Of a DNA stretch of 50,767 nt, positions 2-21,943 are shown piece by piece. The DNA is from an uncultured Planctomycetales bacterium. Lineage in GTDB: Bacteria > Planctomycetota > Phycisphaerae > UBA1845 > CAIVHJ01. Below the pieces are notes generated by a model, which worked only from the letters and a program-made list of their open reading frames with translations, was not told where the DNA came from and did not search any database. Each line of letters opens with the position of its first letter. Within the stretch, counting starts at the first letter, position 1. The DNA is taken from assembly GCA_964619935.1 (NCBI GenBank), contig CAZUGO010000081.1, positions 1 through 50,767 of the forward strand, given 5' to 3'. Made by a program: the position numbers and the translations under genes.

Positions 2-577
2 GTGCTCGTCCGTGAGCAGGTGACCACCGCTTTCGGCGAGGTGGTGTTCAGTGCGGGATCGACGGACACGCGCTATCAGTTCGCTGGCGCTTATGGTTAC
101 GAAAACCTCGGGATCGCAGCGCTGCATGTCGGCCATCGGTATTATGAGCCGGCGCTGGGTAGATTCCTTCAAAGAGATCCAGTGGGTATTGTTGGTGGTT
201 GGAACTCTTATGCATACGTGATGAACAACCCAACCGCTTCCGTCGACCCACTAGGTCTTTGGCCAGGTAATCCAGGGTGGTCGGGATGGGGCAATGAACT
301 TGTCTTGATCGGGACAACTCCGATCGAGTGGCTACCTGGAAATACTATGGAAGAGCGTGTTCGAAACGGGCAAATAATAGGTGTGAGTGTTGCTGCCGTA
401 TGCCTTGCCGGAGCGGCGGGAGTATCCTACACTGGCGTCAACTACGGTTTCAAAGTCGGAATACACGGGGCCCATCACTTTTTTCCGAAGATTGGGAAAT
501 ATGCTCGACACATTCAGATTAACTGGTGGCGTGCTGGTGTAAAGGGAAGCGGTGGCGTATGGCGCAGACCATTTTGA
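2..577 (+). CDS. Rhs/YD-repeat polymorphic toxin, C-terminal fragment (5' partial): RHS core end plus ~110-aa C-terminal toxin tip
   Basis: Translation contains the RHS-core signature YYEPALGRFLQRDPVG...GGWNSYAYVMNNPTASVDPLGL, which is the hallmark PxxxxDPxGL demarcation. A unique ~110-aa tail (GIHGAHHFFPKIG...) follows. The ORF runs off the left edge. Confidence 0.75.
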   Translation: MLVREQVTTAFGEVVFSAGSTDTRYQFAGAYGYENLGIAALHVGHRYYEPALGRFLQRDPVGIVGGWNSYAYVMNNPTASVDPLGLWPGNPGWSGWGNELVLIGTTPIEWLPGNTMEERVRNGQIIGVSVAAVCLAGAAGVSYTGVNYGFKVGIHGAHHFFPKIGKYARHIQINWWRAGVKGSGGVWRRPF

Positions 578-8573: not shown

Positions 8574-8671
8574 CGGTGGCTCCTGTCCCCGTTGCGTCGC
8601 TGCATTCCGGCCGATTATGAGCCAAGGTCACAGGTTCGTCAACGACCGCGGCGGTCGGGCGCGGCGGCGGG

Positions 8672-10435
8672 TCAGGTGAAGTCGGGGATCAGGGTGACGT
8701 CCTGGATGGTGTGTCCGGTCAGGTGGCTGACCGCCACGACCCGGGGCGGGTCGTGCGGCAGGGCGGTGGGCCAGAGAAACAGTCGATCGCGCAGCTCATT
8801 GGTGCCCACGATCCAGTCGGCGGCGACTTCCGCCCGCCGGATGGTCTGGCCGCCGGCCTGGTAGCGGCAACTGAAGGCGTCGCCAATGACCTGGGCGTGG
8901 ACTGCGGTTGAGGTGTCGCTGAAGAACAGCCGCCGCACGCCGTGGGCGCTCAACTGGGCCACCGATTCGATGCTGCGCGGCTGGCCGCGGTAGAGCGTCT
9001 CGGCGTGCTCAGGTTGCTCAACGGGCCAGCAATGGATGGTCCCCCCGGCCGTACCCGCCAGCGGGCCGGACGGCGTCGCCAGCAAGGCGGTGATCGCCGC
9101 GCCGGCCCCGTGGTACACCCGGCAGGGCGGGGCGTCAGGCTGATCGTGGTCCAGGGTCAAGGACAGCACCTGCTGGTCAACTGCCAGCCAGATCCGGTCC
9201 TGGGCAAACTGGACTTGTCGAACGGTGGCCGCGGCAGCGGTGCGACGGGGCAACAGCGGTTCGGCAGCGCCGCCGCGGGTGGTGTCCCAGCGCAACAGTC
9301 CCAGCTCCGAATGCGTGGCGTACAGATGAGTGCCGGCGAGGGCCACGGCGTTGAACCCGCCGCGCGGAGGTCGGTCTGCCTCAGCCAGGTAGGTGGCCGG
9401 CGGGGCCTCGGAATTCGCCGGCACCAGCACCGCCCCCCGGGCGGCCCCCACCAGCAACAGGGTGGTGCCGTCGGCGCTGCGCTCGCAAGTCAAAGAGCGC
9501 AAAGGGCCGGCGGCAGTCGACAACCGCTGGCGGTGCGCGGGCTGCTGGAGTTCTCGCGGGTCAAAGAACAACAACTCCGCTCCGCTGGCCACCACCACCC
9601 AGGCGGTGGGGGCGGGCCGGTCCGAGGTCCGCCACAGGGCGCCATACAAAAACGCGCGGTGACCGGGGCTGAAAGATTGGATCAACTCCTGCAGGCTCGC
9701 CTGCGGGGTCGCCGCCGCCAGATCGTGCAGGCGGGTCAAAGTCTGCTCCAGTTGGGTCAGGTGGGCATCGCGGGCCTCGGCAATGGCCTGCTGAATTTGT
9801 TGCTCGGCGCGGACCTGCTGTTGTTGTCGTTGCAGGCGCCGGCGCTGCTGTTCGGACTGGCGGTAGGCGCTGGAGTCGATCGTGGCACGGCACACCGCTT
9901 CGATCCGCAGCCCGCCGCGGAACAGTACCTCCTGGAGGGCCTCCCGTATGGACTCCAGCAGCGCCCGGCGATCGACATCGTCGCGCAGGGCCGCAGCAGT
10001 GGCCTGGCGCACCACCCGCCGGGTGGCCTGGAGCACGCCGGGCCGCAGGATGTCGCTGAGTTGTTGCCGGGTGACCCGCGGCTGGGTGCCGGCAATGGTT
10101 TCCCGAAACGCCTGGACGTCGTCTGGTTCGGGGTTCACCTGCACCTGCAACCCGATGTCGGCCGTGCAGTCGAAGTGATCGGCACTGGCCAGGTCGGTCA
10201 AGGCGAACTCCAGGATCACCGGTTGGGTGCGCAGCACGATGAGTTGCTCGGCGTCGCCGCGCTGGATGGCGGTTCCCGGCGGGCACCACACCCGGCCGCC
10301 ATGACTGCCGGCGACCAGGGCACACCAGTAAGGCGGCAGATCCACCGAGCGGTTCAACAAGCCAAAGAGTTGATCGCCGGGGATGATCGCGGCAACCACT
10401 TCGGGATTCTCTGTGATGGCTGACAGTTCGGTCAT
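8672..10435 (-). CDS. hypothetical multi-domain protein: SPFH/band-7-like N-terminal region, Gln/Arg-rich coiled coil, C-terminal beta-propeller-like region
   Basis: Start chosen at MTELSAITE (ATG 10435); the six-frame ORF is over-extended. The N-terminal ~170 aa resemble SPFH. The central segment QSEQQRRRLQRQQQQVRAEQQIQQAIAEAR is coiled coil. The C-terminal half is rich in repeated beta-strand/WD-like segments. It is the last gene of the ESCRT-like operon. Confidence 0.6.
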   Translation of the reverse strand: MTELSAITENPEVVAAIIPGDQLFGLLNRSVDLPPYWCALVAGSHGGRVWCPPGTAIQRGDAEQLIVLRTQPVILEFALTDLASADHFDCTADIGLQVQVNPEPDDVQAFRETIAGTQPRVTRQQLSDILRPGVLQATRRVVRQATAAALRDDVDRRALLESIREALQEVLFRGGLRIEAVCRATIDSSAYRQSEQQRRRLQRQQQQVRAEQQIQQAIAEARDAHLTQLEQTLTRLHDLAAATPQASLQELIQSFSPGHRAFLYGALWRTSDRPAPTAWVVVASGAELLFFDPRELQQPAHRQRLSTAAGPLRSLTCERSADGTTLLLVGAARGAVLVPANSEAPPATYLAEADRPPRGGFNAVALAGTHLYATHSELGLLRWDTTRGGAAEPLLPRRTAAAATVRQVQFAQDRIWLAVDQQVLSLTLDHDQPDAPPCRVYHGAGAAITALLATPSGPLAGTAGGTIHCWPVEQPEHAETLYRGQPRSIESVAQLSAHGVRRLFFSDTSTAVHAQVIGDAFSCRYQAGGQTIRRAEVAADWIVGTNELRDRLFLWPTALPHDPPRVVAVSHLTGHTIQDVTLIPDFT

Positions 10436-10484: not shown

Positions 10485-11588
10485 TTAGTCCTGGTTGAAC
10501 CGTTCGAACCTGGCCAGGTCGGCCGGGCGCACCGACGGTCGGGTGCTGCCGAGCACCTGGAGCACGTCGGCCATGCTAATGGCCCGGGCCTTCTGGCCCG
10601 CGATCGACTCCAGGAAGGCGTTGCGGGCGGCCTGTTCGGCAATGCTGGCGATGTCCGCTCCGCTGTAGCCTTCCAGGCGGTCGCAGAGCGCCCCGAAGTC
10701 GACGTCATCGGCCAGCGGGCGCTTCGACAGGTAGATCTCCAGCAGCTTGAAGCGGGCCGGGGCGTCCGGCAACGGGACGTAGATCCGGGCGTCCAGCCGC
10801 CCGGGCCGCATCATGGCATCGTCGAGCATCCAGGGTTTGTTGGTGGCGCCGACGAACAGCAGCGGGCGCGGGTGTTCCTCGAACCCTTCCAGCTCCTGCA
10901 GTATCTGCGGCACCACCCGTTGCATCACCGATGAGCCGCCGGAGGCCCGCTTGGGCACCAGGGCCTCGATTTCATCCATGAAGATGACCGACATGTCTTC
11001 GGCCTTGGCGGCGGCGAACAGCCGATTGAGGTTCTGCTCGGCCTCGCCGACCCACTTGCTCAAGATCTGGGCCGGGCTGATGACGAAGAAGGTGGCGCTC
11101 AACTCATGGGCGATCGCCCGGGCCATCATGGTCTTGCCGGTTCCGGGAGGCCCGTAGAGCAGCACCCCGCCGCCCGCCGAAATGCCGTAGGTCCGGGCCA
11201 GCTCGGGGTGGCTGAGCGGGTAGATCATCTTCAGGCGGATTTCGTCCTTGACGTCCTCCAGGCCGGCGATGTCAGCGAACCCGATGGCCGGCTTTTCCTT
11301 GACGATCCAATCGGAAACGTCGGCCCCGCGGTCGTCGGTGTCGGTGGTTCGCTGGCGGTTCGGCGGTCGCTGCGGTCGGGTTTCGCAATCGCGGGCCAGG
11401 TCGATCAACTCGCCGGCGTAGGTCTCGTGCTGGCGGCGCATCTCCGGCGAAGCGGTCCGGTCCGCCAGCGCGACCATCTGCTCGGCGGCCTGGATGAGGT
11501 AGGTCCGGGCGGTGTTGAACTCGCCGCGGCGGTAGGCGGCCACGCCCTTATCCTTGAGCCGCTCGAATGTTGAAAAAGGAGTCCCCAT
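10485..11588 (-). CDS. Vps4/spastin/katanin-clade AAA+ ATPase with N-terminal MIT-like three-helix domain
   Basis: MIT-like N-terminus (FERLKDKGVAAYRRGEFNTARTYLIQAAEQMVALAD). Meiotic-clade AAA core: Walker A GPPGTGKT, Walker B FMDEIE, SKWVGEAEQ, ATNKPWMLD. C-terminal RFERF is comparable to the Vps4 C-terminal helix. Start at ATG 11588, 25 nt after the upstream stop. Confidence 0.85.
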   Translation of the reverse strand: MGTPFSTFERLKDKGVAAYRRGEFNTARTYLIQAAEQMVALADRTASPEMRRQHETYAGELIDLARDCETRPQRPPNRQRTTDTDDRGADVSDWIVKEKPAIGFADIAGLEDVKDEIRLKMIYPLSHPELARTYGISAGGGVLLYGPPGTGKTMMARAIAHELSATFFVISPAQILSKWVGEAEQNLNRLFAAAKAEDMSVIFMDEIEALVPKRASGGSSVMQRVVPQILQELEGFEEHPRPLLFVGATNKPWMLDDAMMRPGRLDARIYVPLPDAPARFKLLEIYLSKRPLADDVDFGALCDRLEGYSGADIASIAEQAARNAFLESIAGQKARAISMADVLQVLGSTRPSVRPADLARFERFNQD

Positions 11589-11613
11589 TACCGTCGCCGA
11601 TCGTGGTGGTGAA

Positions 11614-12222
11614 CTACTGTTGCTTTTCGCCCTGGCGTTTGAGCGCGTCCAACTCCGCCCGCAGGCCGGCCAGTCGGTCCATTTCCTTGTGGTGTTCGGC
11701 TTCGGTCTCAGCGTCAATCAGGCGGTCGATGTCCTCGTCGGAGACGGCCAGCTCGCCGGTGCTGAGTTCTGCGTCCTGGGCGGCAATGTCCTCGATGGAA
11801 TCCAGAAACATGTTCATGCGCTCTTCCATGGATTGCGACTGTACCATGGCTTTCTCCCAGTCGGCCTGGGTCTTGACCAGGTCGGTCTCACCGAAGAGCT
11901 TGCCGATCTCGGCGGCCATGGTGCCCATGGCTCCGGCGAAGTCCGCAGATGCTTCGGCTTGCCGCTTGATGACCATGGCGTTCTTGACCGAGAGCAGTTG
12001 CCGTTCCAGCAGCCGCTGCATCATGGCGGTCTTCTTCAGCGAGTTGCGGATGAACCCGTATTGCCTGGTGTCGCCGATGGTCTTGGCCCGTTGGGCATTG
12101 CGAATGAACTCGTCCTGAAACTTCTGCTGTTCGCGGATGGCCTTCTCGATCCTGCGGATGCCCTGGCGAACCTTGATGTCGCGTTCGATCCGCCGCTCTT
12201 CAGCCGACTTGAACAAGCCCAT
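11614..12222 (-). CDS. ESCRT-III family protein, CHMP2/Vps2-like, with C-terminal MIM1-like helix
   Basis: N-terminus MGLFKSAEERRIERDIKVRQ. The core AMGTMAAEIGKLF...WEKAMVQSQSMEERMNMFLDSIED aligns by eye with CHMP2A AMGTMNRQL...MMEFERQAEIMDMKEEMMNDAID. The C-terminal EMDRLAGLRAELDALKRQ resembles a MIM1 (D/E-x-x-L-x-x-R-L-x-x-L-K/R). ATG at 12222 with GGAGGA 8 nt upstream. Confidence 0.8.
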   Translation of the reverse strand: MGLFKSAEERRIERDIKVRQGIRRIEKAIREQQKFQDEFIRNAQRAKTIGDTRQYGFIRNSLKKTAMMQRLLERQLLSVKNAMVIKRQAEASADFAGAMGTMAAEIGKLFGETDLVKTQADWEKAMVQSQSMEERMNMFLDSIEDIAAQDAELSTGELAVSDEDIDRLIDAETEAEHHKEMDRLAGLRAELDALKRQGEKQQ

Positions 12223-12265: not shown

Positions 12266-12877
12266 TCAGGCCTCCGGTTCAGCGGTCTGTTGCTCGCGGA
12301 CCCGCCGGTCGGCTTCGTCGAAGGCCTGGTGTGTATCCTGGAACACGCCGTTGTCGAGCTGCTCCCAGATGTCCAGGACCTGCCGCCCGGCAGAGGACAG
12401 CCCGGCGGCACCCGCGTCGACCTCGGCACCCAGTTCGAGCATGCGGTCCAGCCGCTCTTGATAGATTTCGGTGCTGACGGCGTCGTTCTCGATGAGCCGG
12501 CCCAGGTGCATGATGTCCTTTTCGCTGATCAAGCCGAAGCGGCTGCCGGCGGCCCGGGACCGCTCGTGGTTCTCGCGGACCAGTCGCAACCGCGAAACGG
12601 TCAGCAGCTCCTTGCTGCGGATGTTGAGCTGCCGGGCGAGCATCAGTTGTTCGGTGGTCTTAAGTTCGAATTGCTGGGCCAGCACGGTGCGGACTTCGGG
12701 GGTCTTCTCACCGGCGCCTTTCGCGAACATGTCCTGCTTGTCTGCGGCGATCTTCTTGACCCGGTTGAGCAACTGCGTGCGATCCTTTTCGAGCAGCAGC
12801 TCCTGGCGGCGCAGCTCCTGGCGGGTCATCTGCGACAGGGGTTTCTTTCGCTTGATCAACCAGTCAATGAACGACAT
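12266..12877 (-). CDS. ESCRT-III/Snf7-family protein (CHMP4/6-like)
   Basis: 203 aa: MSFIDWLIKRKKPLSQMTRQELRRQELLLEKDRTQLLNRVKKIAADKQ... Charged helical-hairpin pattern and acidic C-terminus typical of Snf7-domain proteins. ATG at 12877 with AGGGGAA upstream. Confidence 0.7.
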   Translation of the reverse strand: MSFIDWLIKRKKPLSQMTRQELRRQELLLEKDRTQLLNRVKKIAADKQDMFAKGAGEKTPEVRTVLAQQFELKTTEQLMLARQLNIRSKELLTVSRLRLVRENHERSRAAGSRFGLISEKDIMHLGRLIENDAVSTEIYQERLDRMLELGAEVDAGAAGLSSAGRQVLDIWEQLDNGVFQDTHQAFDEADRRVREQQTAEPEA

Positions 12878-12910: not shown

Positions 12911-14356
12911 TCAGGATGGTTCAGGTTCGCGGGGCTGCCGCCGCCGTTCGGGCGAATCGTCGGCGGGGTCGGCGGTTCGGGCCGGCGGTTCCGCCGCGGC
13001 CGCGGGGCCCTCCGCTGCGGTCGTTGCCGACGCCTCGGCCGGTGGCTGGTCAAACTCCTGGAGGATGGCCAGCTCTTCGTCGGAGGTCAGCATGTCGCTG
13101 ATGCCGGTCTCCAGGGACCCGACCAGATCGGCATCGGCCTTGAGGGTTTCGAGCATTTCCTCGGCCTTGACCGCGTTTTCAGTGAGCGCCTCGGTGGCCG
13201 GCAGATCGGCCAGCTCGCCCTGTTGGATGAGCGTCAGGTTGTGGATGTCGGTGCTCAGGATGTTGATCTGCTTGTTGAGCATGTTGGCGGTGGCATTCTG
13301 GCGGGCCAGATCCTTCCGCAACTGGGCCACCTGGGCCGCCAGTCGCTGGCGGACCACCTGGGACGTGCTCTGCTTGCCTTGGTCGATGAGGCTGGCCTCG
13401 CGGGTCTCCAACTGGGCGATGTCGTCGTACATGCGATCGCGCCGCTGCGACAGCGCCGCCCGGCGGCGGGAGAGCTCGTTGATCTTGCGGGCCTCGTCGC
13501 CGGCGCTGCTGAACAGTTGCCGGATCTTGTCAACCATCGACATCGAAAAGCTCTCCTGTGTGTCGGATGCGGCCCCGCGATAAATCAGGAACGCGCCCTC
13601 ATGCCGCCCGGTGTGCAGCTCGGGATCGCGGCGGGCGGCCTGTTCGAACGCCCGGCGGGCGTATTCCTCGCCGACGCCCACCTCCCGGGCCACCGATTCG
13701 GCCGACAGGCCTCCGGTCAGGAGCACGGCGCGGTTGGCCTGCAGGAACTCGTCGACCCGCTGGACCTTGTCGTCCTCGTCTTCCGGGTCGAACAGGGCCG
13801 CCAGCCGGGGGTCGAGATCGTCGGTATCGCCGACCCGCTCCCAGCCCCCGTGGGCGCCGGGCTGGATCAGGACCAGCGTGACATTGCCCAGGCTCGAACG
13901 GGCCCGCAGTGCCTCCGGCGCGAAGCCCGTGGGGCTGCAAATGCCGATGATGTGCGGGACGTGCGGATCGACCTGCAATGATCTTACATGATCGAGCAAC
14001 TCACTGGAACCGATCGGCGGCCCGCCGCTGCCGGGCTGGCCGTCGAGCACGTGCCATTCCAGCGGCGAGAGCACCGAAGCGATGGCCACGCCGACCCGCC
14101 GCTTGCCGAACCACCACCACGGGCGGACGTAGCCGTGCAGGACCACGCGGCGGTTCTTGGGCGTGTCGGCCAGCACCCGGCGATCGAATTTGCGATTCCG
14201 GGCCATCAGCGAGCGCACGCGGTCAGCTTCATCCTGATGCACCAGATCCCAGTGGCTGCCCCGCAGCAAGGTGCCCTTGGCCCGCTCGAAGTTGTGCTCC
14301 ATGCCGGCCAGGAAGCGCGCCTCCAGTTCCACGATGGGGTCGGTGCTGCGGGTCAT
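12911..14356 (-). CDS. fusion protein: ~320-aa unknown N-terminal domain plus C-terminal ESCRT-III/Snf7-like domain
   Basis: The C-terminal ~200 aa (MVDKIRQLFSS...KINELSRRRAALSQRRDRMYDDIAQLETREASLIDQGKQ...MLNKQINILSTDIHNLT...TENAVKAEEMLETL...) have Snf7-like heptad/charge patterning. The N-terminal domain (RVVLHGYVRPWWWFGKRRVG...) is unassigned. The ATG at 14356 overlaps the kinase stop (ATGA). Confidence 0.65.
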   Translation of the reverse strand: MTRSTDPIVELEARFLAGMEHNFERAKGTLLRGSHWDLVHQDEADRVRSLMARNRKFDRRVLADTPKNRRVVLHGYVRPWWWFGKRRVGVAIASVLSPLEWHVLDGQPGSGGPPIGSSELLDHVRSLQVDPHVPHIIGICSPTGFAPEALRARSSLGNVTLVLIQPGAHGGWERVGDTDDLDPRLAALFDPEDEDDKVQRVDEFLQANRAVLLTGGLSAESVAREVGVGEEYARRAFEQAARRDPELHTGRHEGAFLIYRGAASDTQESFSMSMVDKIRQLFSSAGDEARKINELSRRRAALSQRRDRMYDDIAQLETREASLIDQGKQSTSQVVRQRLAAQVAQLRKDLARQNATANMLNKQINILSTDIHNLTLIQQGELADLPATEALTENAVKAEEMLETLKADADLVGSLETGISDMLTSDEELAILQEFDQPPAEASATTAAEGPAAAAEPPARTADPADDSPERRRQPREPEPS

Positions 14357-15405
14357 GATCGGGTTCCCGCCGGAAGGGTGCTCCCGCAGGTGATGCAGTA
14401 GTTGTCGTCCGGGTCGACGGTCGCCTGGCAGGACGGGCAGCACAGGACGGTGTCGACCAGTTGATTGCCGCATTGGATGCAGAACTGATCGTCGTCGGCG
14501 ACGCGGTTGCCGCAGTTCTTGCACAGCGGTGCCGTGGCCGAACGGCCGAGGTGCGGCGGCCGCCGCGGTCCGCCGCACCCGGTCGCGGCCGGGTCCAGCC
14601 GCAGGGCGGCCGCGACATCGGCTGCCCGGGTGAAGCGCTTCTCCAGGCGGGTGTAGCAGCGGCGGAAGACGTCGTCCAGCGCCGCGGGGATGTCGGGCCG
14701 GAGGGCGGACGGCAGGTCATGGCCCTGCGGTCGGACGCCGGTGAGCAGCTCGAACAGCACCACGCCGCAGGCGTACAGGTCGCTGCGGGCGTCGACTTCC
14801 TGACCGTCACGCTGCTCCGGCGACATGTAGGCCAGGGTTCCGGTGATGCCGCGGCCCTCCGCGCTCGGGAGGCTGCCGGACTGCATCAGCGACGCGGTGG
14901 TCAGGCCGCCCACGGTGCCCAGTCCGAAGTCGGCCACCTTGACGTCGTCGCGGACCACGGTGCCGACGTCGCGGTCGCCGAGGTGCAACAGAATATTGGC
15001 CGGCTTGATGTCGCGATGGATGATGCCGCCTTGGTGGGCGACGCCCAGGGCCGCGAGCACGCCCCGCAGAATCTCCACGGCCGCCGCGGTCGGCAGGCCG
15101 CCCGGGTGGGCATCGATGACCGCCCGCAGCGATGGGCCGTCGACATACTCCATGATCAGGTACGGCGGCGTGGCGAACGGGTCCAGGTCCAGGGCTCGCA
15201 CGATGTTGCCATGCCGCAGCCCATGAATGACCACTCCCTCGCGACGCAGGCATTGGACGTAGGCCGCAGCGGTCGGAATCTTGATGGCAACGACTTCGTC
15301 AAAGACGTGATGCCGGGCCTTCCAGACCACCCCGAAGCTGCCGGTGCCGATGTGCTCCTGCAACAGGTAGTTGTTGATGCGGTCGCCGGCCTGGCAGGTG
15401 CTCAT
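14353..15405 (-). CDS. Hanks-type Ser/Thr protein kinase with two C-terminal zinc-ribbon motifs
   Basis: Kinase motifs GTGSFGVV, AIK, HRDIKPANILL, DFG, SPEQ. C-terminus CKNCGNRVADDDQFCIQCG and CPSCQATVDPDDNYCITCG. ATG at 15405 with GGAAGGA 9 nt upstream. Confidence 0.9.
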   Translation of the reverse strand: MSTCQAGDRINNYLLQEHIGTGSFGVVWKARHHVFDEVVAIKIPTAAAYVQCLRREGVVIHGLRHGNIVRALDLDPFATPPYLIMEYVDGPSLRAVIDAHPGGLPTAAAVEILRGVLAALGVAHQGGIIHRDIKPANILLHLGDRDVGTVVRDDVKVADFGLGTVGGLTTASLMQSGSLPSAEGRGITGTLAYMSPEQRDGQEVDARSDLYACGVVLFELLTGVRPQGHDLPSALRPDIPAALDDVFRRCYTRLEKRFTRAADVAAALRLDPAATGCGGPRRPPHLGRSATAPLCKNCGNRVADDDQFCIQCGNQLVDTVLCCPSCQATVDPDDNYCITCGSTLPAGTRS

Positions 15406-15432: not shown

Positions 15433-15861
15433 TCACAGTTCCGCTTCCGCATGTTCTGCGAGAAAGTCACAAACCAGAAAATTATAGACCGCGGCCGCCA
15501 TGAAACCAAGCACCACCACCGCCCAAGTCAGCGTGCCGCTGATGTGCCAGTTGGCCAGCCACAGCGCCACGATGACATCGATGACCAGGTAGCCCAGCAG
15601 CATCACCCCCGCGGCGGCATTTGAATCGGCGCGGCCGACCCACGCCGGCACGAAGAACAATGCCCAAGGCAGCGCCGCGGCGATCCCGATCCACACCAGA
15701 GCCACCTTGGTGGTGCGCCACAGATCCTCGAGGGTCTCGGGGTTCCGGTAGAAGTAGTAGCCGACCAAGCCGGCGGCCACCACCAGGATTGCGGTCAGGA
15801 CCTTCCCGCCGACATACTTGGCGATTGCAGCGAACACCGTTTGGTCACCCGCTTCCGTCAT
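15433..15861 (-). CDS. small integral membrane protein (4 predicted TM helices)
   Basis: Start MTEAGDQTVF at ATG 15861. Hydrophobic segments LTAILVVAAGLVGYYF, ALVWIGIAAALPWALFFVPAWV, VMLLGYLVIDVIVALWLANW and WAVVVLGFMAAAVYNFLV. Confidence 0.6.
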   Translation of the reverse strand: MTEAGDQTVFAAIAKYVGGKVLTAILVVAAGLVGYYFYRNPETLEDLWRTTKVALVWIGIAAALPWALFFVPAWVGRADSNAAAGVMLLGYLVIDVIVALWLANWHISGTLTWAVVVLGFMAAAVYNFLVCDFLAEHAEAEL

Positions 15862-15992: not shown

Positions 15993-18281
15993 TCAACCCT
16001 CGACCGGCGGGCTGGCCGGCGTGTTCGCCGGCTGGCCGGAGGACTGCTGTCGGATCCGGCGAACGGTCTCGGAGAGCGATTCAATCTTGGCGGTAAGCGG
16101 TTCGGGAACCCGCTGCACGGCGACGGCGGGCAAGGCCTCGCCGCGGGTCGGGACCGGCATCGATCGGCGGCTGTCGGCGACCCGTCGGGTGGCGTTGATC
16201 AAGGCCTCGATCGACAGGCGGGCCTTGTCCGCCTTCTCAATCATGGCCCGCAGTTCGGTCAGCCGCACCTGCCCGTCTTGCAGATTGCGTTCCGCGACGC
16301 TGCCGATGGAGCGCAGTTCCTTCATCAGCCGCGTGGGGTGCACGGTATTCTCGCGAAGCTGCTCGAGCTGTTTGGGCAGCTTGGCCACCGCTTTCTCGGC
16401 TTCCTGGACCAAGCCCTTGAGGTCGCCGACCTGTCCCTGGGATTGCGTGTAAATCTCGCGGAGCACGTCGCGGAGCTTGTGGGTCTTGGTGCAGCGATCT
16501 TCGAGTTCCTCGATGGTCCCGACTGCGTCGCTCTCGATCTCTTCCAGCCGCGCGCACAGGGCCTTGCCTTCCTTGGACAGTTGCCGGGAACTGTCCAGCG
16601 ACTCGGTTACCGTTTTCTGCAGGACGTCGGACGCGTTCTGCACGATCTTGGTCATGCGCTCGACCTGCTCCATCTGCCGCGAGGCCCGGGCCATGATCTC
16701 CTGCGGCTGATTCAGGAGGATGCCGGCCTGGCTGATGAGCTGCTGGAGGTGCTCGGTGGCCTGTTCCACGCTTTGGAGTGACTGGGTGACCGTGTCCAGC
16801 TTGACCTCGCGCTGCGACAGCTCCGCGGCGATTTTCTCGAAACGCTGCAGTTGCTGGTCGAGCGTGGCCAGGCGCTTGCTGCGGCTGGCTTCCTTGGTCT
16901 CGTGCTTGACCACCAGGTTCTTGATTTCCTGCCATTTGCGATTGATGGCCCGCTTGCACTCGTTGAGTTCGCGGTCGAAAGACACCTGCCGGCTGGTGAG
17001 TTTCTTCTCGATGAAGCCGGCCCGTTCGTTGAGGTTGTGATCCTGTTCCCCGAGCTGCTGCGAGATCCGCTCCAGGTCGCGCATCTGCTGGGCGATGCGG
17101 GCTTCGCGTTCGACCAGTTTGCGGTCCTGGGTGTCGAGCTGGGTGGACAGCGCCCGCATCTCTTCGACCCGTCCGGCCAGGGCCTTGTCGCGCTGGTCCA
17201 GACTGCGTTCCTGTTCCTGCAGGGTCACGGTCAGCCGGTGGAGCTCCCGGATCTTGGTGTCCAGCGTCGACTGGTGCTCGTGGAACTTGAGTTCCTGGGC
17301 CTGCAACTTGCTGGACATGCGGTGCAGTTCGTGGATCCGCTGATCGGTGTCGGCGGCGGTGGATTCCAACTCCTGGATCTGCGACTCCAGCGACTGCACG
17401 TATTGGCTGGTGATCTCCGAGATGGCCGCTTCGACCTCATCGTGCCGCGAGGAGCCGCCGGGTTCGCCATCGGGCATCGTCATCATCTCGTCGATGACGG
17501 CGCTGACCCGGGCGCCGTCCACGGCGTAGACGGCTTCGGAGTAGGCACTCAGCAGCACGTTGTCGCACAGGTTGTTGATCAGTCGCGGGACGCCGTTGGA
17601 ATACTGGAAGATCAGATCCAGGGCTTCATCGTCGAAAATGCGGGCGTCAGGGCGGCCGGCGGTGCGCAGGCGGTGCTGGATGTAGCGCTCGGTGAGATCG
17701 CGGGACAGACAGGTAATGTGGAAATTGCGGAAGACCCGCTGCTTGAGCTGCTTGGAGCCCGATTTCTGCAACATCTGGTTAAGGTCGCGCTGCCCCAGCA
17801 ACACGATCTGGAGCAGCTTGCCGTCGGCGACTTCCAGGTTGCTGACCAGGCGGAGGTGTTCGAGGTTCTTCTCCGACACGGTCTGGGCGTCATCCACCAC
17901 CAGCACGGCGGCCCGCTCCTTGGAATACAGCGTCAGCAGGTATTCCTCGAGGACCGTCAGGATCTCCATGGTGTTGTAGCTGGTCTCGATCGGGATCTGG
18001 AACTCGTTGCAGATGCCCTGGAGCAGGTCCGCGCCGGCCAGGTAGCTGTGGTTGAGCACCGCCGTTTCGGCGTTCTTGCCCAGACGACTGACCAGCATGT
18101 GTCCCGCAAAGGACTTGCCCGTGCCGACGTCGCCGGTCACCACCACCAGGCCTTTGCGCTCCTGGACCCCGTAGACCAGCGAGGCCAGGGCTTCCTCGTG
18201 CTGCGGGCTGCGGAAGAAGAAGCGGGGGTCCAGCGTGCTGTTGAACGGTGTCTCTCGGAGACCGAAGAATTCGGTATACAT
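15993..18281 (-). CDS. ExeA/GspA-like AAA ATPase fused to a ~500-aa coiled-coil region
   Basis: N-terminus MYTEFFGLRETPFNSTLDPRFFF...VVVTGDVGTGKS is the ExeA-type signature. The rest is a long heptad-rich Gln/Glu/Arg/Leu coiled coil. ATG at 18281 with GGCGGAG upstream. Confidence 0.75.
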   Translation of the reverse strand: MYTEFFGLRETPFNSTLDPRFFFRSPQHEEALASLVYGVQERKGLVVVTGDVGTGKSFAGHMLVSRLGKNAETAVLNHSYLAGADLLQGICNEFQIPIETSYNTMEILTVLEEYLLTLYSKERAAVLVVDDAQTVSEKNLEHLRLVSNLEVADGKLLQIVLLGQRDLNQMLQKSGSKQLKQRVFRNFHITCLSRDLTERYIQHRLRTAGRPDARIFDDEALDLIFQYSNGVPRLINNLCDNVLLSAYSEAVYAVDGARVSAVIDEMMTMPDGEPGGSSRHDEVEAAISEITSQYVQSLESQIQELESTAADTDQRIHELHRMSSKLQAQELKFHEHQSTLDTKIRELHRLTVTLQEQERSLDQRDKALAGRVEEMRALSTQLDTQDRKLVEREARIAQQMRDLERISQQLGEQDHNLNERAGFIEKKLTSRQVSFDRELNECKRAINRKWQEIKNLVVKHETKEASRSKRLATLDQQLQRFEKIAAELSQREVKLDTVTQSLQSVEQATEHLQQLISQAGILLNQPQEIMARASRQMEQVERMTKIVQNASDVLQKTVTESLDSSRQLSKEGKALCARLEEIESDAVGTIEELEDRCTKTHKLRDVLREIYTQSQGQVGDLKGLVQEAEKAVAKLPKQLEQLRENTVHPTRLMKELRSIGSVAERNLQDGQVRLTELRAMIEKADKARLSIEALINATRRVADSRRSMPVPTRGEALPAVAVQRVPEPLTAKIESLSETVRRIRQQSSGQPANTPASPPVEG

Positions 18282-19591: not shown

Positions 19592-21943
19592 ATGAGTGCA
19601 GCAAGACGACGCAACCCAGCCGACCCGCCAGACCCGGCACCCTACGGCGTTCTGGTGCTGCTGCTCGGCGCGGTGTTCGTGGCCACGGCGGTGCTGACCT
19701 TCAGCCCCGCGGATGATCCCAATCCCCATGTCTATCCGCACGCGGATCCGGCGCATAACGCCTGCGGTCGGGTCGGTGCCTGGGGGGCGTATCACCTCAT
19801 TCGATTGCTCGGCGGCGGGTTGTACCCCATGCTGATCCTGATCATCCTGGGCTGCTTCGTGAGGATCACGAACGGTCCGCTGGAGCACGTCTGGCAGCGG
19901 GTAGCCGGTGGTGCCGTCCTCGGGGTAGTCACCTCGGTGTGCGCTTACCTGATCTGGCCACAGGGCCTGCCCGACCTGCCCGGCGGGTACGCCGGCGCCT
20001 TGGGCGTGTTCCTGGGGCGGTTGATGACCGCCAACCTGTCCATCGCCGGCACGCTGCTTATTCTGGGCTATTTCGCCTTCGCGGCTTTGTTGTTCATCTC
20101 GGACGGATTCTGGAGTCGCGTCCTGCGGACGGCGTCGGGCTGCTCGCAAGCCACCCGGTTGGCCATCGTCTCGGCGGGCAGCGCCGGGATGGCGGTGGTC
20201 AACCGGACCGCCGAGGCCATCAAGCGACCGGATCCCGTGGTTGGGCCGCCGTCTGCCGCCCCGCGGAAGCCAGCGGCCGTCCGCGAAGGGCCGCCACCTG
20301 AGCCTGCCCCCGTGGATCCGCCGGCTGCGATCCGCGAGCGCCCCGCCGACCAGGCGCTTAAGAAGGTCAAAGAGCTGACGTTCCGCAGCAACAAGCCCAA
20401 GCCGGATGACACCACCGGGTGTTATCCAGCGACTCTGGACGATTGGGTCCTGCCGCCGGTCTCGCTCCTGGAATCGATCGAGTACGCACCCAGCGCCGAG
20501 CAGGAGCGAATGGCCCGGGAGAAGGCCCAGACGCTCCAGAATACGCTGCGGGATTACCGCATCGAAGCCCCCGTGGTGGCCATCGAGACCGGACCGGTGA
20601 TCACCATGTACGAGCTGCAACTGGCCCCGGGCGTGAAGGTCAGCCAGATCAGTGCGTTGTCCAACGACATCGCCCGGGCCTTGAAGGCTCCGGCGATCCG
20701 GGTGGTCGCGACCATGGCCGGCAAGAGCACGGTCGGCGTCGAGGTCCCGCGGACCGATCGCGAGAAGGTTCGACTCAAGGAGCTGATGACCCTGAGCGGC
20801 AAGGCCGCCCAGAACATGAAGCTGCCGCTGTTTCTGGGCAAGGATGCCAGCGGCACCCCCATGGTCTTCGATTTGACACGCATGCCGCACATGCTGATTG
20901 CCGGCACCACCGGATCCGGTAAGAGTGTCTGCATTAACTCCATCATCATGAGCTTGCTGATGACCCAGCGTCCGGATCGGGTCAAGCTGATCCTGGTCGA
21001 TCCCAAGATGGTGGAACTGAACACCTTCAAGGAAGTGCCGCACCTGATGTGCCCCATCGTGACCGACATGCACAGGGCCGAGAAGATCCTGGAGTGGGCC
21101 TGCATGAAGATGGATGAGCGCTACGCTCTGCTCGCCGAGGCCGCAGTGCGCAACGTCTCGGAGTACAACCGCCTCGGACACCAGGAAATCCACCGGCGGC
21201 TGCGCCCATCCAACGAACAGGAGGCGGCCCAGATTCCGGCCAATATTCCATATGTGGTGATTGTCATCGACGAACTGGCCGACCTGATGATGACCTCGGC
21301 CAAGGAAGTGGAGTACCACCTCTCGCGCCTGGCCCAGAAGAGCCGGGCGGTTGGAATTCACATCGTGGTTGCCACGCAGCGTCCGGAGGCCAGGGTGGTG
21401 ACCGGGCTGATCAAGTCCAACATGCCCTGCCGCTGCGCGTTTCGAGTAGCCGCCCGCATGGATTCGCGGATTGTTCTGGATCAAAACGGCGCCGAGGTTT
21501 TGTTGGGCCAGGGGGATATGCTATTCCTGCCGCCGGGGTCATCGATGCTGGTGCGAGCCCAGGGCACGTTCATCGAAGACGGCGAGATCGCCGGCGCCAT
21601 CGCCGATCTGCGCAGCAAGGGACGGTGCGATTTTCATCCCGAGTTGATGCGTATCCGGCCGGCCAGCGCCACCGGCGAAGCGGAGCGCGACGAGTTGTTC
21701 GACTCCGCCGTTCAGATCATCCTGGAGACCCAGCGCGGCAGCGTCAGCCTGCTGCAGCGGCGACTGACCATTGGGTACTCCCGGGCGTCGCGGCTGGTGG
21801 ACCAGATGGCCGAGGCCGGCATTGTGGGCGAATACAAAGGCTCCCAGGCCCGTGAAGTGCTGATGACGCCCGAGGATTGGGAGGCCTTCCAGGCCCAGGG
21901 CGAGCCCGGCGACGAGGCCTTCGCCGATGATGATCCCGAGTAA
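19592..21943 (+). CDS. ftsK: DNA translocase FtsK/SpoIIIE
   Basis: N-terminal TM helices, Pro-rich linker, motor domain with Walker A GTTGSGKS and Walker B VVIDELAD. Motif ATQRP. C-terminal gamma (winged-helix) domain. Confidence 0.95.
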   Translation: MSAARRRNPADPPDPAPYGVLVLLLGAVFVATAVLTFSPADDPNPHVYPHADPAHNACGRVGAWGAYHLIRLLGGGLYPMLILIILGCFVRITNGPLEHVWQRVAGGAVLGVVTSVCAYLIWPQGLPDLPGGYAGALGVFLGRLMTANLSIAGTLLILGYFAFAALLFISDGFWSRVLRTASGCSQATRLAIVSAGSAGMAVVNRTAEAIKRPDPVVGPPSAAPRKPAAVREGPPPEPAPVDPPAAIRERPADQALKKVKELTFRSNKPKPDDTTGCYPATLDDWVLPPVSLLESIEYAPSAEQERMAREKAQTLQNTLRDYRIEAPVVAIETGPVITMYELQLAPGVKVSQISALSNDIARALKAPAIRVVATMAGKSTVGVEVPRTDREKVRLKELMTLSGKAAQNMKLPLFLGKDASGTPMVFDLTRMPHMLIAGTTGSGKSVCINSIIMSLLMTQRPDRVKLILVDPKMVELNTFKEVPHLMCPIVTDMHRAEKILEWACMKMDERYALLAEAAVRNVSEYNRLGHQEIHRRLRPSNEQEAAQIPANIPYVVIVIDELADLMMTSAKEVEYHLSRLAQKSRAVGIHIVVATQRPEARVVTGLIKSNMPCRCAFRVAARMDSRIVLDQNGAEVLLGQGDMLFLPPGSSMLVRAQGTFIEDGEIAGAIADLRSKGRCDFHPELMRIRPASATGEAERDELFDSAVQIILETQRGSVSLLQRRLTIGYSRASRLVDQMAEAGIVGEYKGSQAREVLMTPEDWEAFQAQGEPGDEAFADDDPE

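Follow-up and report, generated by a model that had tools for sequence, protein, structure and literature searches.

The stretch of DNA analyzed here (the window) comprises 50,767 nt from an uncultured Planctomycetales bacterium, positions 1-50,767 of the forward strand of contig CAZUGO010000081.1 (GCA_964619935.1). It carries a conserved gene cluster on the minus strand, the last gene of which encodes a protein combining an SPFH/band-7-like domain, a long helix and a WD40-like beta-propeller (the SPFH-WD40 protein). The features of this gene and of its cluster are:

8614-8642, minus strand: sigma-70-like promoter match (10/12 hexamer matches), between the stop codon of the SPFH-WD40 gene and efp
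8672-10435, minus strand: SPFH/long helix/WD40-like propeller gene, 587 aa plus stop codon; last gene of the conserved cluster
8684-9607, minus strand: seven-bladed WD40-like beta-propeller, aa 277-584, with blades of 38-44 aa
9608-9709, minus strand: short helical linker, aa 243-276, with model helices at 248-252 and 257-270
9710-9871, minus strand: single Gln/Arg-rich helix of 54 residues, aa 189-242 (DSSP on the AlphaFold2 model)
9875-10408, minus strand: SPFH/band-7-like alpha/beta domain, aa ~10-187 (Pfam PF01145 and model)
10485-11588, minus strand: single-domain AAA ATPase of Vps4/CdvC-like architecture; 367 aa in the public call, 361 aa from the ATG at 11570
11614-12222, minus strand: cc1, four-helix protein of 202 aa, candidate ESCRT-III-like subunit (AlphaFold2, Foldseek and hhalign)
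12266-12877, minus strand: cc2, helical protein of 203 aa, conserved and syntenic
12911-14356, minus strand: cc3, protein of 481 aa with an N-terminal globular part and a C-terminal coiled-coil region, conserved and syntenic
14353-15405, minus strand: Ser/Thr protein kinase with a C-terminal double zinc ribbon (Pfam Pkinase 7e-36, Zn_Ribbon_1 and DZR)
15433-15861, minus strand: small integral membrane protein (4-TM), first gene of the conserved set

In the translation, the SPFH-WD40 gene starts with an ATG 49 bp past the stop codon of the upstream AAA gene. The initial annotation was right to treat this reading frame as a gene, but its length of 588 aa is corrected here to 587 aa plus stop codon. 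The public gene call has the same 587-aa product, identical to the ORF at 8672-10435 of the minus strand. That this ORF is not a product of chance is confirmed by about 440 homologous clusters and by an AlphaFold2 model with a mean pLDDT of 94.8.

The N-terminal region had been likened to an SPFH/band-7 fold, and this assignment holds. The Pfam family Band_7/SPFH (PF01145) matches aa 64-221 with an E-value of 2.2e-9 and 38.1 bits (curated gathering score 23.6), and the match is also present in precomputed Pfam data. Among 82 relatives, each scanned singly, 21 match Band_7 at E≤0.01, and divergent members exceed the cut-off as well (P0071 with 28.5 bits over model positions 4-176 of 176, P0003 with 26.7 bits). 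The YdjI-type model Band_7_1 (PF13421) matches weakly and below threshold (E 0.02; 15 bits, cut-off 24). In the AlphaFold2 model a beta-rich N-terminal subdomain is followed by a beta hairpin (73-100), four helices (104-173), a long strand (176-187) and the helix 189-242. This predicted order of strands and helices fits an SPFH-like domain; stomatin and HflK show a similar order, with the SPFH domain followed by a long helix. No SPFH chain was matched when the PDB was searched with the N-terminal family profile (HMM-to-sequence search).

The next segment had been described as a Gln/Arg-rich coiled coil. A long helix is indeed present, as one helix of 54 residues (14 Gln, 8 Arg, 9 Ala) that contains the string QRRRLQRQQQQVRAEQQIQQAIAEAR at aa 197-222 (nt 9770-9847); the pLDDT drops to 74-84 over aa 189-242. 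The heptad hydrophobicity is weak (0.6 in the best register), and the Band_7 match extends into the helix. The CC1 helix of SPFH proteins lies directly after the SPFH domain, and since the Gln/Arg-rich helix occupies this very place, it is probably no module of its own. It is followed by the linker, in which P244, F255, R260 and Y264 are invariant in the family alignment.

The C-terminal half is a WD40-type propeller, in agreement with the propeller-like repeats noted initially. Between aa 277 and 584 the AlphaFold2 model shows 28 strands, interpreted as seven four-stranded blades, with a pLDDT mostly above 90. The family profile matches WD40 propellers in the PDB (Tako8 9e-24, Fbw7 4.9e-9, beta-TrCP 1.8e-7, PkwA 6.6e-6). 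The best 50 Foldseek matches are almost all WD40-type beta-propellers (mLST8, COP1, Fbw7 and the designed WRAP-T among them), led by seven- and eight-bladed WD40 proteins; against single-propeller chains, the TM-scores normalized by target length are mostly ~0.45-0.74. With single sequences the signal is far fainter: Pfam matches the propeller rarely (WD40 in 1 and PQQ_2 in 3 of 82 relatives), and phmmer against the PDB gave just a marginal match to the WD40 domain of KIF21A. Since single-sequence WD40 matches are so rare, the propeller repeats are to be regarded as divergent. Nine propeller residues are invariant in the family, namely G330, G360, N362, H375, S376, G379, W383, R406 and G465. 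A search of NCBIfam with the protein gave nothing relevant, and no additional Pfam domains were found in the longer family members. Pfam, the PDB profile search, AlphaFold2 and Foldseek clearly speak against a protein with neither SPFH nor propeller similarity.

Direct support for the earlier idea of a membrane platform was not obtained. Kyte-Doolittle analysis with 19-residue windows revealed no transmembrane segment in the protein (maximum 1.31) and no conserved hydrophobic site across the family (median 1.37). The SPFH domain is net acidic (18 Lys and Arg against 25 Asp and Glu), and neither an N-terminal transmembrane helix nor a hairpin anchor, a lipidation site or a basic surface was found. 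Because transmembrane segment, hairpin and basic surface are all lacking, membrane association of the SPFH-WD40 protein can only be presumed, and a partner, e.g., the 4-TM protein of the operon, would be required for contact with a membrane. Stomatin, HflK/C, prohibitin and flotillin have membrane anchors of their own. A missing anchor is nevertheless compatible with membership in the SPFH superfamily, since YdjI likewise depends on membrane-protein partners (PMC8581546).

At E≤1e-3 the family of the SPFH-WD40 protein comprises about 440 cluster representatives, of which nearly all have the full length of 580-600 aa. A word-index homology search gave 3 relatives; the large family was revealed by an exhaustive search. 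Clusters with known taxonomy belong to the Phycisphaerae, and the 75 loci from GTDB species representatives are nearly all labelled Phycisphaerae or Planctomycetota. Among the members looked up, none carried a name for the family. Identity across loci is ~36% for the SPFH-WD40 protein, 66% for the ATPase and ~78% for cc1. By these sequence comparisons, the far faster evolution of the SPFH-WD40 protein would fit an adaptor rather than a rigid core scaffold.

In 65 of 66 loci the AAA ATPase gene directly precedes the SPFH-WD40 gene in the same orientation, and the gap between the two has a median of ~113 bp. This joint is tight (1 of 68 gaps exceeds 600 bp), and the joint between cc1 and the AAA gene does not hold in 22 of 38 loci. 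The closest partner of the SPFH-WD40 gene is the ATPase gene, not the ESCRT-III-like genes. The whole set, i.e., 4-TM protein, Ser/Thr kinase, three helical proteins, ATPase and SPFH-WD40 gene, is kept in 29 of 40 loci; the kinase is syntenic in ~30 loci and the 4-TM gene in 29. The 4-TM protein has about four merged hydrophobic regions (Kyte-Doolittle, 19-residue windows above 1.6, maximum 2.34). It is highly improbable that the SPFH-WD40 protein is a chance neighbor, functionally unrelated to the genes upstream of it. Its divergence, far greater than that of its neighbors, would be in line with such an arrangement, but same-strand adjacency with short gaps has been retained in all but one of the 66 loci in spite of the low protein identity.

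The SPFH-WD40 gene is also the last member of the cluster, as had been claimed. On its 3' side the genes vary: no conserved downstream gene was found, an ABC transporter occurs in 16-20 loci, and EF-P occurs in the window and in one other locus. In the window, efp is preceded by the promoter match at 8614-8642, which marks the downstream boundary of the unit. Along the cluster, the minus strand showed no terminator-like site. FtsK, the AAA_22 coiled-coil protein and flagellin were also considered as conserved neighbors and rejected, none of them occurring within 10 kb in other loci.

The ATPase has one AAA domain and a C-terminal Vps4 helix. In Pfam it matches AAA (1.2e-40), AAA_lid_3 and Vps4_C (26.3 bits, gathering score 21.3). 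It shares approximately 35% identity with yeast Vps4 over 320 aa through the C-terminus. The NCBIfam CdvC model aligns collinearly over aa 9-358 with 223.6 bits, short of its cut-off of 650; CDC48 (227.6 bits) and PAN (222) score alike, and the leading PDB matches are Cdc48/p97. To judge from these scores, the core appears about equally near to Cdc48-D2 and PAN as to CdvC. The N-terminal ~85 aa form a helical region, in which only the NCBIfam CdvC alignment reaches as far as aa 9. An MIT domain was not found there by Pfam on aa 1-130, nor an MIT chain in the PDB with the N-terminal family profile, and hhalign against three Vps4 MIT sequences gave a probability of 0.7%.

Of the three helical proteins, cc1 is the candidate for an ESCRT-III-like subunit. 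Its AlphaFold2 helices (7-49, 52-111, 115-155 and 162-201; pLDDT 80) follow the ESCRT-III order, the N-terminus reads MGLF, and the C-terminal helix is Leu/Arg-rich and conserved at L184-K195. The best Foldseek match is CHMP3, sub-significant at E 0.08 (prob 1.0, TM-score 0.70, target-normalized). About 19 of the best 50 matches belong to the ESCRT-III superfamily (CdvB, Vipp1, Snf7, CHMP), all at E≥0.08 and none significant. Against CHMP alignments hhalign gives 54-60% at E ~1e-4, collinear from residue 1 (MGLF). Pfam Snf7 is at E 8.5. The family profiles of cc1, cc2 and cc3 found no ESCRT-III protein in the PDB, those of cc1 and cc2 matching nothing at all. For cc2 there is no signal in Pfam, the PDB or hhalign against CHMP profiles, and for cc3 no ESCRT-III signal in the PDB search or in hhalign against the same profiles. 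That cc1 and cc2 are paralogues could not be demonstrated (hhalign 6%). Judged from profile and predicted structure, cc1 looks moderately ESCRT-III-like. The description of the cluster as an ESCRT-like operon is moderately supported: Vps4_C, the collinearity with CdvC and the sub-significant likeness of cc1 argue for it, whereas the search for MIT, the silent cc2 and cc3, and a core near Cdc48-D2/PAN do not.

A regulator of the HflK/C type, acting on the ATPase alone, may also be considered. The SPFH-WD40 protein would then enclose or restrain the AAA hexamer and control substrate access, and the ESCRT-III-like link would be secondary. A precedent exists in HflK/C-FtsH, where an AAA+ machine has an SPFH scaffold as its partner (PMC12048511); the AAA and SPFH-WD40 genes form a conserved two-gene unit separable from the other cluster genes, and the ATPase core appears equally close to Cdc48, PAN and CdvC. 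This role is nonetheless unlikely. Neither protein has a protease domain or a transmembrane segment, the remaining cluster is syntenic in 29 of 40 loci, and the Vps4_C match together with the ESCRT-III-like features of cc1 points to an ATPase that remodels polymers.

The reading preferred here, to which a probability of about 0.5 is given, is that the SPFH-WD40 protein is peripheral and cytoplasmic and specifically serves the ATPase and ESCRT-III-like system as an SPFH scaffold or adaptor. By analogy with other SPFH proteins, copies of it would assemble by way of the SPFH domain and the helix after it, forming a scaffold in the shape of a ring or an arc. Propellers arrayed on this scaffold would offer docking sites, and the scaffold would position or gate, at a defined patch of membrane, the ATPase together with the ESCRT-III-like polymers presumed to be its substrates. 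SPFH rings and domes abut membranes (PMC12624060). Seven-bladed propellers may be incompatible with the closed dome of canonical SPFH cages.

Such an arrangement would parallel both YdjI-PspA and the organization of the AAA protease FtsH by HflK/C. That SPFH scaffolds partner ESCRT-III-family proteins (YdjI-PspA) and AAA machines (HflK/C-FtsH) is already known. In Bacillus subtilis, PspA requires YdjI of the pspA-ydjGHI operon for its localization at the membrane, and YdjI in turn relies on the integral membrane proteins YdjG/H (PMC8581546). Both the SPFH-WD40 protein and YdjI are SPFH proteins without a transmembrane segment of their own, encoded alongside a small multi-TM protein and a (here candidate) ESCRT-III-like protein. 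YdjI, unlike the protein studied here, lacks a propeller, and neither a Vps4-like ATPase nor a kinase belongs to its system. The sequences also differ, the PF13421 match being below cut-off and cc1 being nearer to Snf7/CHMP than to PspA (hhalign and leading Foldseek match). With HflK/HflC-FtsH and prohibitin-m-AAA the cluster shares the pairing of an SPFH protein with an AAA+ machine, and the long helix after the SPFH domain. HflK/C are TM-anchored and periplasmic with a cap-forming C-terminus, whereas the present protein is cytoplasmic, has no transmembrane segment and carries a propeller of 310 residues instead of a cap; unlike FtsH, the ATPase has no protease domain.

The propeller might instead select substrate or cargo, recognizing clients, possibly ones phosphorylated by the kinase, and delivering these to the AAA unfoldase. 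Oligomerization would then be the sole task of the SPFH part, and the system would serve sorting or extraction, not primarily membrane scaffolding. For archaeal ESCRT loci, cargo binding through PQQ/WD40-like domains and a dependence on phosphorylation have been proposed (PMC10936438), and here the kinase is conserved in the cluster; it is absent within 10 kb in 11 of 40 loci, though, where the AAA-propeller pair persists. The phosphodegron readers Fbw7 and beta-TrCP are the nearest natural WD40 profile matches, but at 10-15% identity these matches reflect WD40 repeats of a generic kind. Among the components, the propeller protein evolves fastest, as would be expected of a specificity factor. 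Its invariant H375, S376 and W383, with the A-B-turn Gly, are read from their strand positions as a structural WD40 tetrad rather than as a ligand pocket. On balance a cargo selector is considered rather unlikely, and a dedicated scaffold or adaptor is retained as the preferred role.

At archaeal ESCRT loci, genes for kinases, SPFH+CC proteins and WD40/PQQ propellers have been described (Makarova et al. 2024, PMC10936438). The cluster resembles the Meth_adaptin and Halo_adaptin loci, in which genes for a Vps4-type ATPase and ESCRT-III occur with SPFH+CC proteins, propellers and Ser/Thr kinases; Meth_adaptin loci encode SPFH + coiled-coil + zinc-ribbon proteins, and Halo_adaptin loci WD40/PQQ-adaptin-like proteins. 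In the archaeal loci SPFH domain and propeller reside on separate proteins, the propellers being fused to Ig/adaptin-like domains, whereas here SPFH and WD40 parts are fused, and the organism is bacterial. The zinc ribbons, too, are placed differently, on the kinase here and on the SPFH+CC protein in Meth_adaptin loci. The likeness is one of genomic logic. No description of a cytoplasmic SPFH-WD40 fusion tied to a Vps4/CdvC-like ATPase was found in the literature, and none of an ESCRT/Vps4 system in Phycisphaerae or Planctomycetes in the literature searched, which lay mostly outside subscription journals.

ESCRT membrane-remodelling systems have, to our knowledge, so far been reported only in archaea and eukaryotes. 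If genuinely of ESCRT type, an operon spanning the class Phycisphaerae would be an exception, equipped with the accessory domain types of archaeal ESCRT (kinase, SPFH, propeller), and it raises the question of horizontal transfer versus convergence. As in the crenarchaeal CdvA-CdvB-CdvC system, an operon of FtsZ-less organisms unites ESCRT-III-like protein(s), a Vps4-type ATPase and one non-ESCRT partner that would recruit to the membrane. It differs from the Cdv system in that there is no similarity to CdvA, the CdvC model stays at 223.6 bits against its cut-off, and no MIT was found. Planctomycetes including Phycisphaerae are reported to have no FtsZ (PMC6952346). A division role for the cluster is pure speculation. 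In its boldest form, which is distinctly unlikely, the cluster would be a bacterial ESCRT-type scission machine that performs or finishes FtsZ-independent binary fission in Phycisphaerae, with the SPFH-WD40 protein in a CdvA-like part, marking the membrane site and recruiting polymer and ATPase. Were this fission reading true, it would address what drives division in planctomycetes without FtsZ (PMC6952346). In such bacteria, the genes of the cluster are candidates for a part in membrane remodelling and possibly in division.

An anti-phage or conflict system, composed of AAA ATPase, kinase and sensor propeller, was considered as well, and is very unlikely. In PADLOC the ATPase matches IetA and the kinase matches PD-T4-6 models, both at the level of domains, and NCBIfam IteA matches the ATPase with 111 bits. 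These reflect generic AAA and kinase domain similarity, and PADLOC has no matches for the SPFH-WD40 protein, cc1 or cc2; the defense reading was rejected on the grounds that PADLOC shows such generic matches only. The same gene order over 75 GTDB species-representative loci, with the high identity of cc1, suggests a core cellular system rather than a patchy defense island.

The gene for the SPFH–propeller protein has its ATG 49 bp past the stop of the gene before it. The gene is real, and the same product is already present, without a name, among public gene calls. The coordinates of the initial annotation were exact, while its length of 588 residues was one too many. An exhaustive HMMER search through 1.84 billion cluster representatives gave 440 relatives at E ≤ 1e-3 and 144 at E ≤ 1e-30, nearly all of them 580-600 residues long and aligned end to end; a faster word-index search gave just three. 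The AlphaFold2 model, built from a 95-sequence alignment, has a mean pLDDT of 94.8 and contains all three parts proposed earlier.

Features of the SPFH–propeller gene and of the AlphaFold2 model of its product
8672-10435, minus strand: open reading frame, 587 residues plus stop
Residues ~10-187: SPFH-like part, a beta-rich subdomain, then a beta hairpin, four helices and a long strand
Residues 189-242: single 54-residue helix
Between long helix and propeller: two short helices
Residues 277-584: propeller of 28 strands

The Pfam family Band_7/SPFH (PF01145) matches residues 64-221 with 38.1 bits (gathering score 23.6, E 2.2e-9). It was also found at E ≤ 0.01 in 21 of 82 relatives, each scanned singly, and above the cut-off in two divergent relatives, in one of which the full model is covered. 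In the predicted structure, the order of strands and helices in the N-terminal part and the adjoining long helix fits that of stomatin and HflK. The formerly tentative SPFH/band-7 assignment is upheld. The Gln/Arg-rich string (residues 197-222), described earlier as a coiled coil, does lie in a long helix, but this is a single helix at the position of SPFH CC1, with weak heptad hydrophobicity. No membrane anchor was found in the protein itself: the top 19-residue hydrophobicity window reaches 1.31, the SPFH domain is net acidic, and no conserved hydrophobic site was found among the relatives.

The 28 strands of the model are read as seven four-stranded blades. The family profile matched the WD40 structures of designed Tako8 (9e-24), Fbw7 (4.9e-9) and beta-TrCP (1.8e-7). 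Propellers filled the Foldseek matches for the full model; the best were WD40 proteins, among them mLST8, COP1, Fbw7 and a 7-bladed designed protein, with TM-scores, normalised to the length of the matched structure, of up to 0.74. The earlier propeller assignment is likewise upheld.

Scanning one genome for each GTDB species yielded at least 75 loci with a homologue, a lower bound given the narrow search pattern; practically all belong to MAGs of Phycisphaerae or Planctomycetota. The sole locus labelled Spirochaetales (L044, MAG contig CAYOHN010000540.1, 1.9 kb) is probably a mis-binned Phycisphaerae fragment. Pairing with the AAA ATPase gene is near-obligate: it lies immediately upstream on the same strand in 65 of the 66 loci having at least 1.3 kb upstream (median gap ~113 bp), and a neighbourhood by chance is very unlikely. 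The wider synteny is frequent, with the seven-gene order complete in 29/40 loci having at least 8.5 kb upstream. A defence system would be an unlikely reading of the cluster, given that this synteny is class-wide and that the PADLOC matches were all generic.

Conserved order of the cluster in the window, with median identity of homologues to the window protein
15433-15861, minus strand: 4-TM protein
14353-15405, minus strand: Ser/Thr kinase with zinc ribbons, 56%
12911-14356, minus strand: helical protein cc3 (481 aa), 54%
12266-12877, minus strand: helical protein cc2 (203 aa), 65%
11614-12222, minus strand: helical protein cc1 (202 aa), 78%
10485-11588, minus strand: AAA ATPase, 66%
8672-10435, minus strand: SPFH–propeller protein, 37%

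The only loose joint of the cluster is that between cc1 and the ATPase (11589-11613 in the window), which is longer than 600 bp in 22 of 38 loci, inserted genes widening it to as much as 4.3 kb. Between the ATPase and the SPFH–propeller gene, 67 of 68 loci have a tight joint, and one exceeds 600 bp. The cluster can thus be regarded as two units, and the ATPase and SPFH–propeller genes form a conserved two-gene unit in their own right. No conserved gene follows at the loci compared; an ABC transporter is found downstream in 16-20 loci, and EF-P in the window and one other locus. The placement of the gene at the end of the operon is supported, since the downstream genes vary, efp is preceded by a sigma-70-like promoter match of its own, and the coding strand of the cluster shows no terminator-like site in the window.

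Two further proteins, absent from the window, are encoded ~7-8 kb upstream at other loci (L005-L079), in many genomes before the 4-TM gene on the same strand: a 467-aa protein in 28 loci, which by eye looks like a HAMP+GGDEF protein, and a 344-aa TM/coiled-coil protein in 19. A distant 831-aa variant (P0003, L002:10001-12496, also at L003 and L004) shares the SPFH ... propeller layout, has a far longer helical part in the middle and scores 26.7 bits with Band_7. At these three loci it has no AAA ATPase neighbour, and the genes upstream of it (584 aa and 370 aa) have no Pfam matches.

The ATPase contains one AAA domain (1e-40), an AAA lid and Vps4_C (26.3 bits, cut-off 21.3) according to Pfam. 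Its residues 9-358 score 223.6 bits against the NCBIfam model CdvC, well short of the 650 required for an equivalog and at the same level as CDC48 (227.6 bits) and PAN (222 bits), and its best PDB matches are Cdc48/p97. Yeast Vps4 is 35% identical over 320 residues, with large gaps at the insertion of the Vps4 small ATPase subdomain. The N-terminal ~85 residues gave no MIT signal in Pfam, a PDB profile search or hhalign. The public call for the ATPase, 367 aa, is six residues longer than the product from the ATG at 11570; from a TTG start the frame would be 410 aa.

The protein cc1 is exceptionally conserved (about 78-80% identity, 202 aa throughout, 208 in a few), falls into over 3,400 clusters at the 90% identity level and belongs to no Pfam family. 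The name 'cysteinyl-tRNA synthetase' given to orthologues in two JGI records is apparently an annotation error. In the predicted structure of cc1 (pLDDT 80), four long helices follow one another in the ESCRT-III order. The best Foldseek match is CHMP3, below significance (E 0.08, prob 1.0, TM 0.70 normalised to the matched structure). By our own count ~19 of the best 50 matches, none significant, belong to the ESCRT-III superfamily; they include CHMP2A/3, Vipp1, Loki CHMP4-7, CdvB, CdvB2, Asgard ESCRT-IIIB, Snf7 and CHMP1B. Alignment by hhalign with alignments of human CHMP sequences, which as queries retrieved PF03357-annotated proteins, gave probabilities of 54-60% (E ~1e-4) and is collinear from a common N-terminal MGLF through the hairpin. 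The Leu/Arg-rich C-terminal helix, with invariant L184, L187, R188, A189, E190, L191, L194 and K195, is, as we read it, reminiscent of the MIM1 motif without matching it. No ESCRT-III signal was found in cc2 or cc3 by PDB profile search or hhalign against CHMP profiles.

The description of the operon as ESCRT-like is moderately supported, and an ESCRT-type system is given a probability of roughly 0.55-0.65. Archaeal ESCRT loci have been described that encode Ser/Thr kinases together with an SPFH+coiled-coil+zinc-ribbon protein and propeller proteins resembling WD40/PQQ (Makarova et al., PMC10936438). According to a 2025 review, a Vps4-like ATPase is apparently absent in bacteria, and Band-7 domains occur among PspA partners in a role not known (PMC7619361); YdjI of B. 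subtilis is an SPFH protein (PMC8581546). No account of the Phycisphaerae cluster was found in the literature, the coverage of which is incomplete. Pairings of SPFH with ESCRT-III and with AAA proteins have precedents, and so do the domain types. No precedent is known for the SPFH-propeller fusion, for its bacterial host or for its pairing with a Vps4/CdvC-like ATPase. A conserved bacterial system of this type would contradict a published generalisation. Phycisphaerae division is binary-fission-like, without FtsZ, and driven by a protein not known (PMC6952346); the genes of the cluster are testable candidates for a role in membrane scission in bacteria lacking FtsZ.

SPFH proteins assemble into rings and domes abutting membranes (PMC12624060). 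We infer that the SPFH–propeller protein may self-assemble via its SPFH domain and helix, and that a partner, most simply the 4-TM protein of the operon, would bring it to the cytoplasmic membrane face. The assembly would offer propellers as docking sites, by which the ATPase and the ESCRT-III-like proteins presumed to be its substrates might be positioned or gated. Such an adaptor role fits the rapid divergence of the protein. It is unlikely that it instead selects clients by reading kinase-dependent marks, and slightly less likely still that it is an HflK/C-style regulator of the ATPase alone.

The gene just upstream of the cluster, at 15993-18278 and likewise on the minus strand, encodes an AAA_22 N-domain resembling the XrtA/PEP-CTERM system-associated ATPase (TIGR03015, 239.5 bits) and, behind it, a coiled coil of ~500 aa; no homologue was found within 10 kb of the cluster at other loci. 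An FtsK-like DNA translocase gene (19592-21943, plus strand; translation read by eye) lies divergently ~3.7 kb from the cluster, a proximity not kept elsewhere. At 2-577 (plus strand), a reading frame already open at the window start encodes a product ending in an RHS/YD-type core-end motif, recognised by eye (…NPTASVDPLGLW), and a short C-terminal tail; this product is possibly the tip of a polymorphic toxin.
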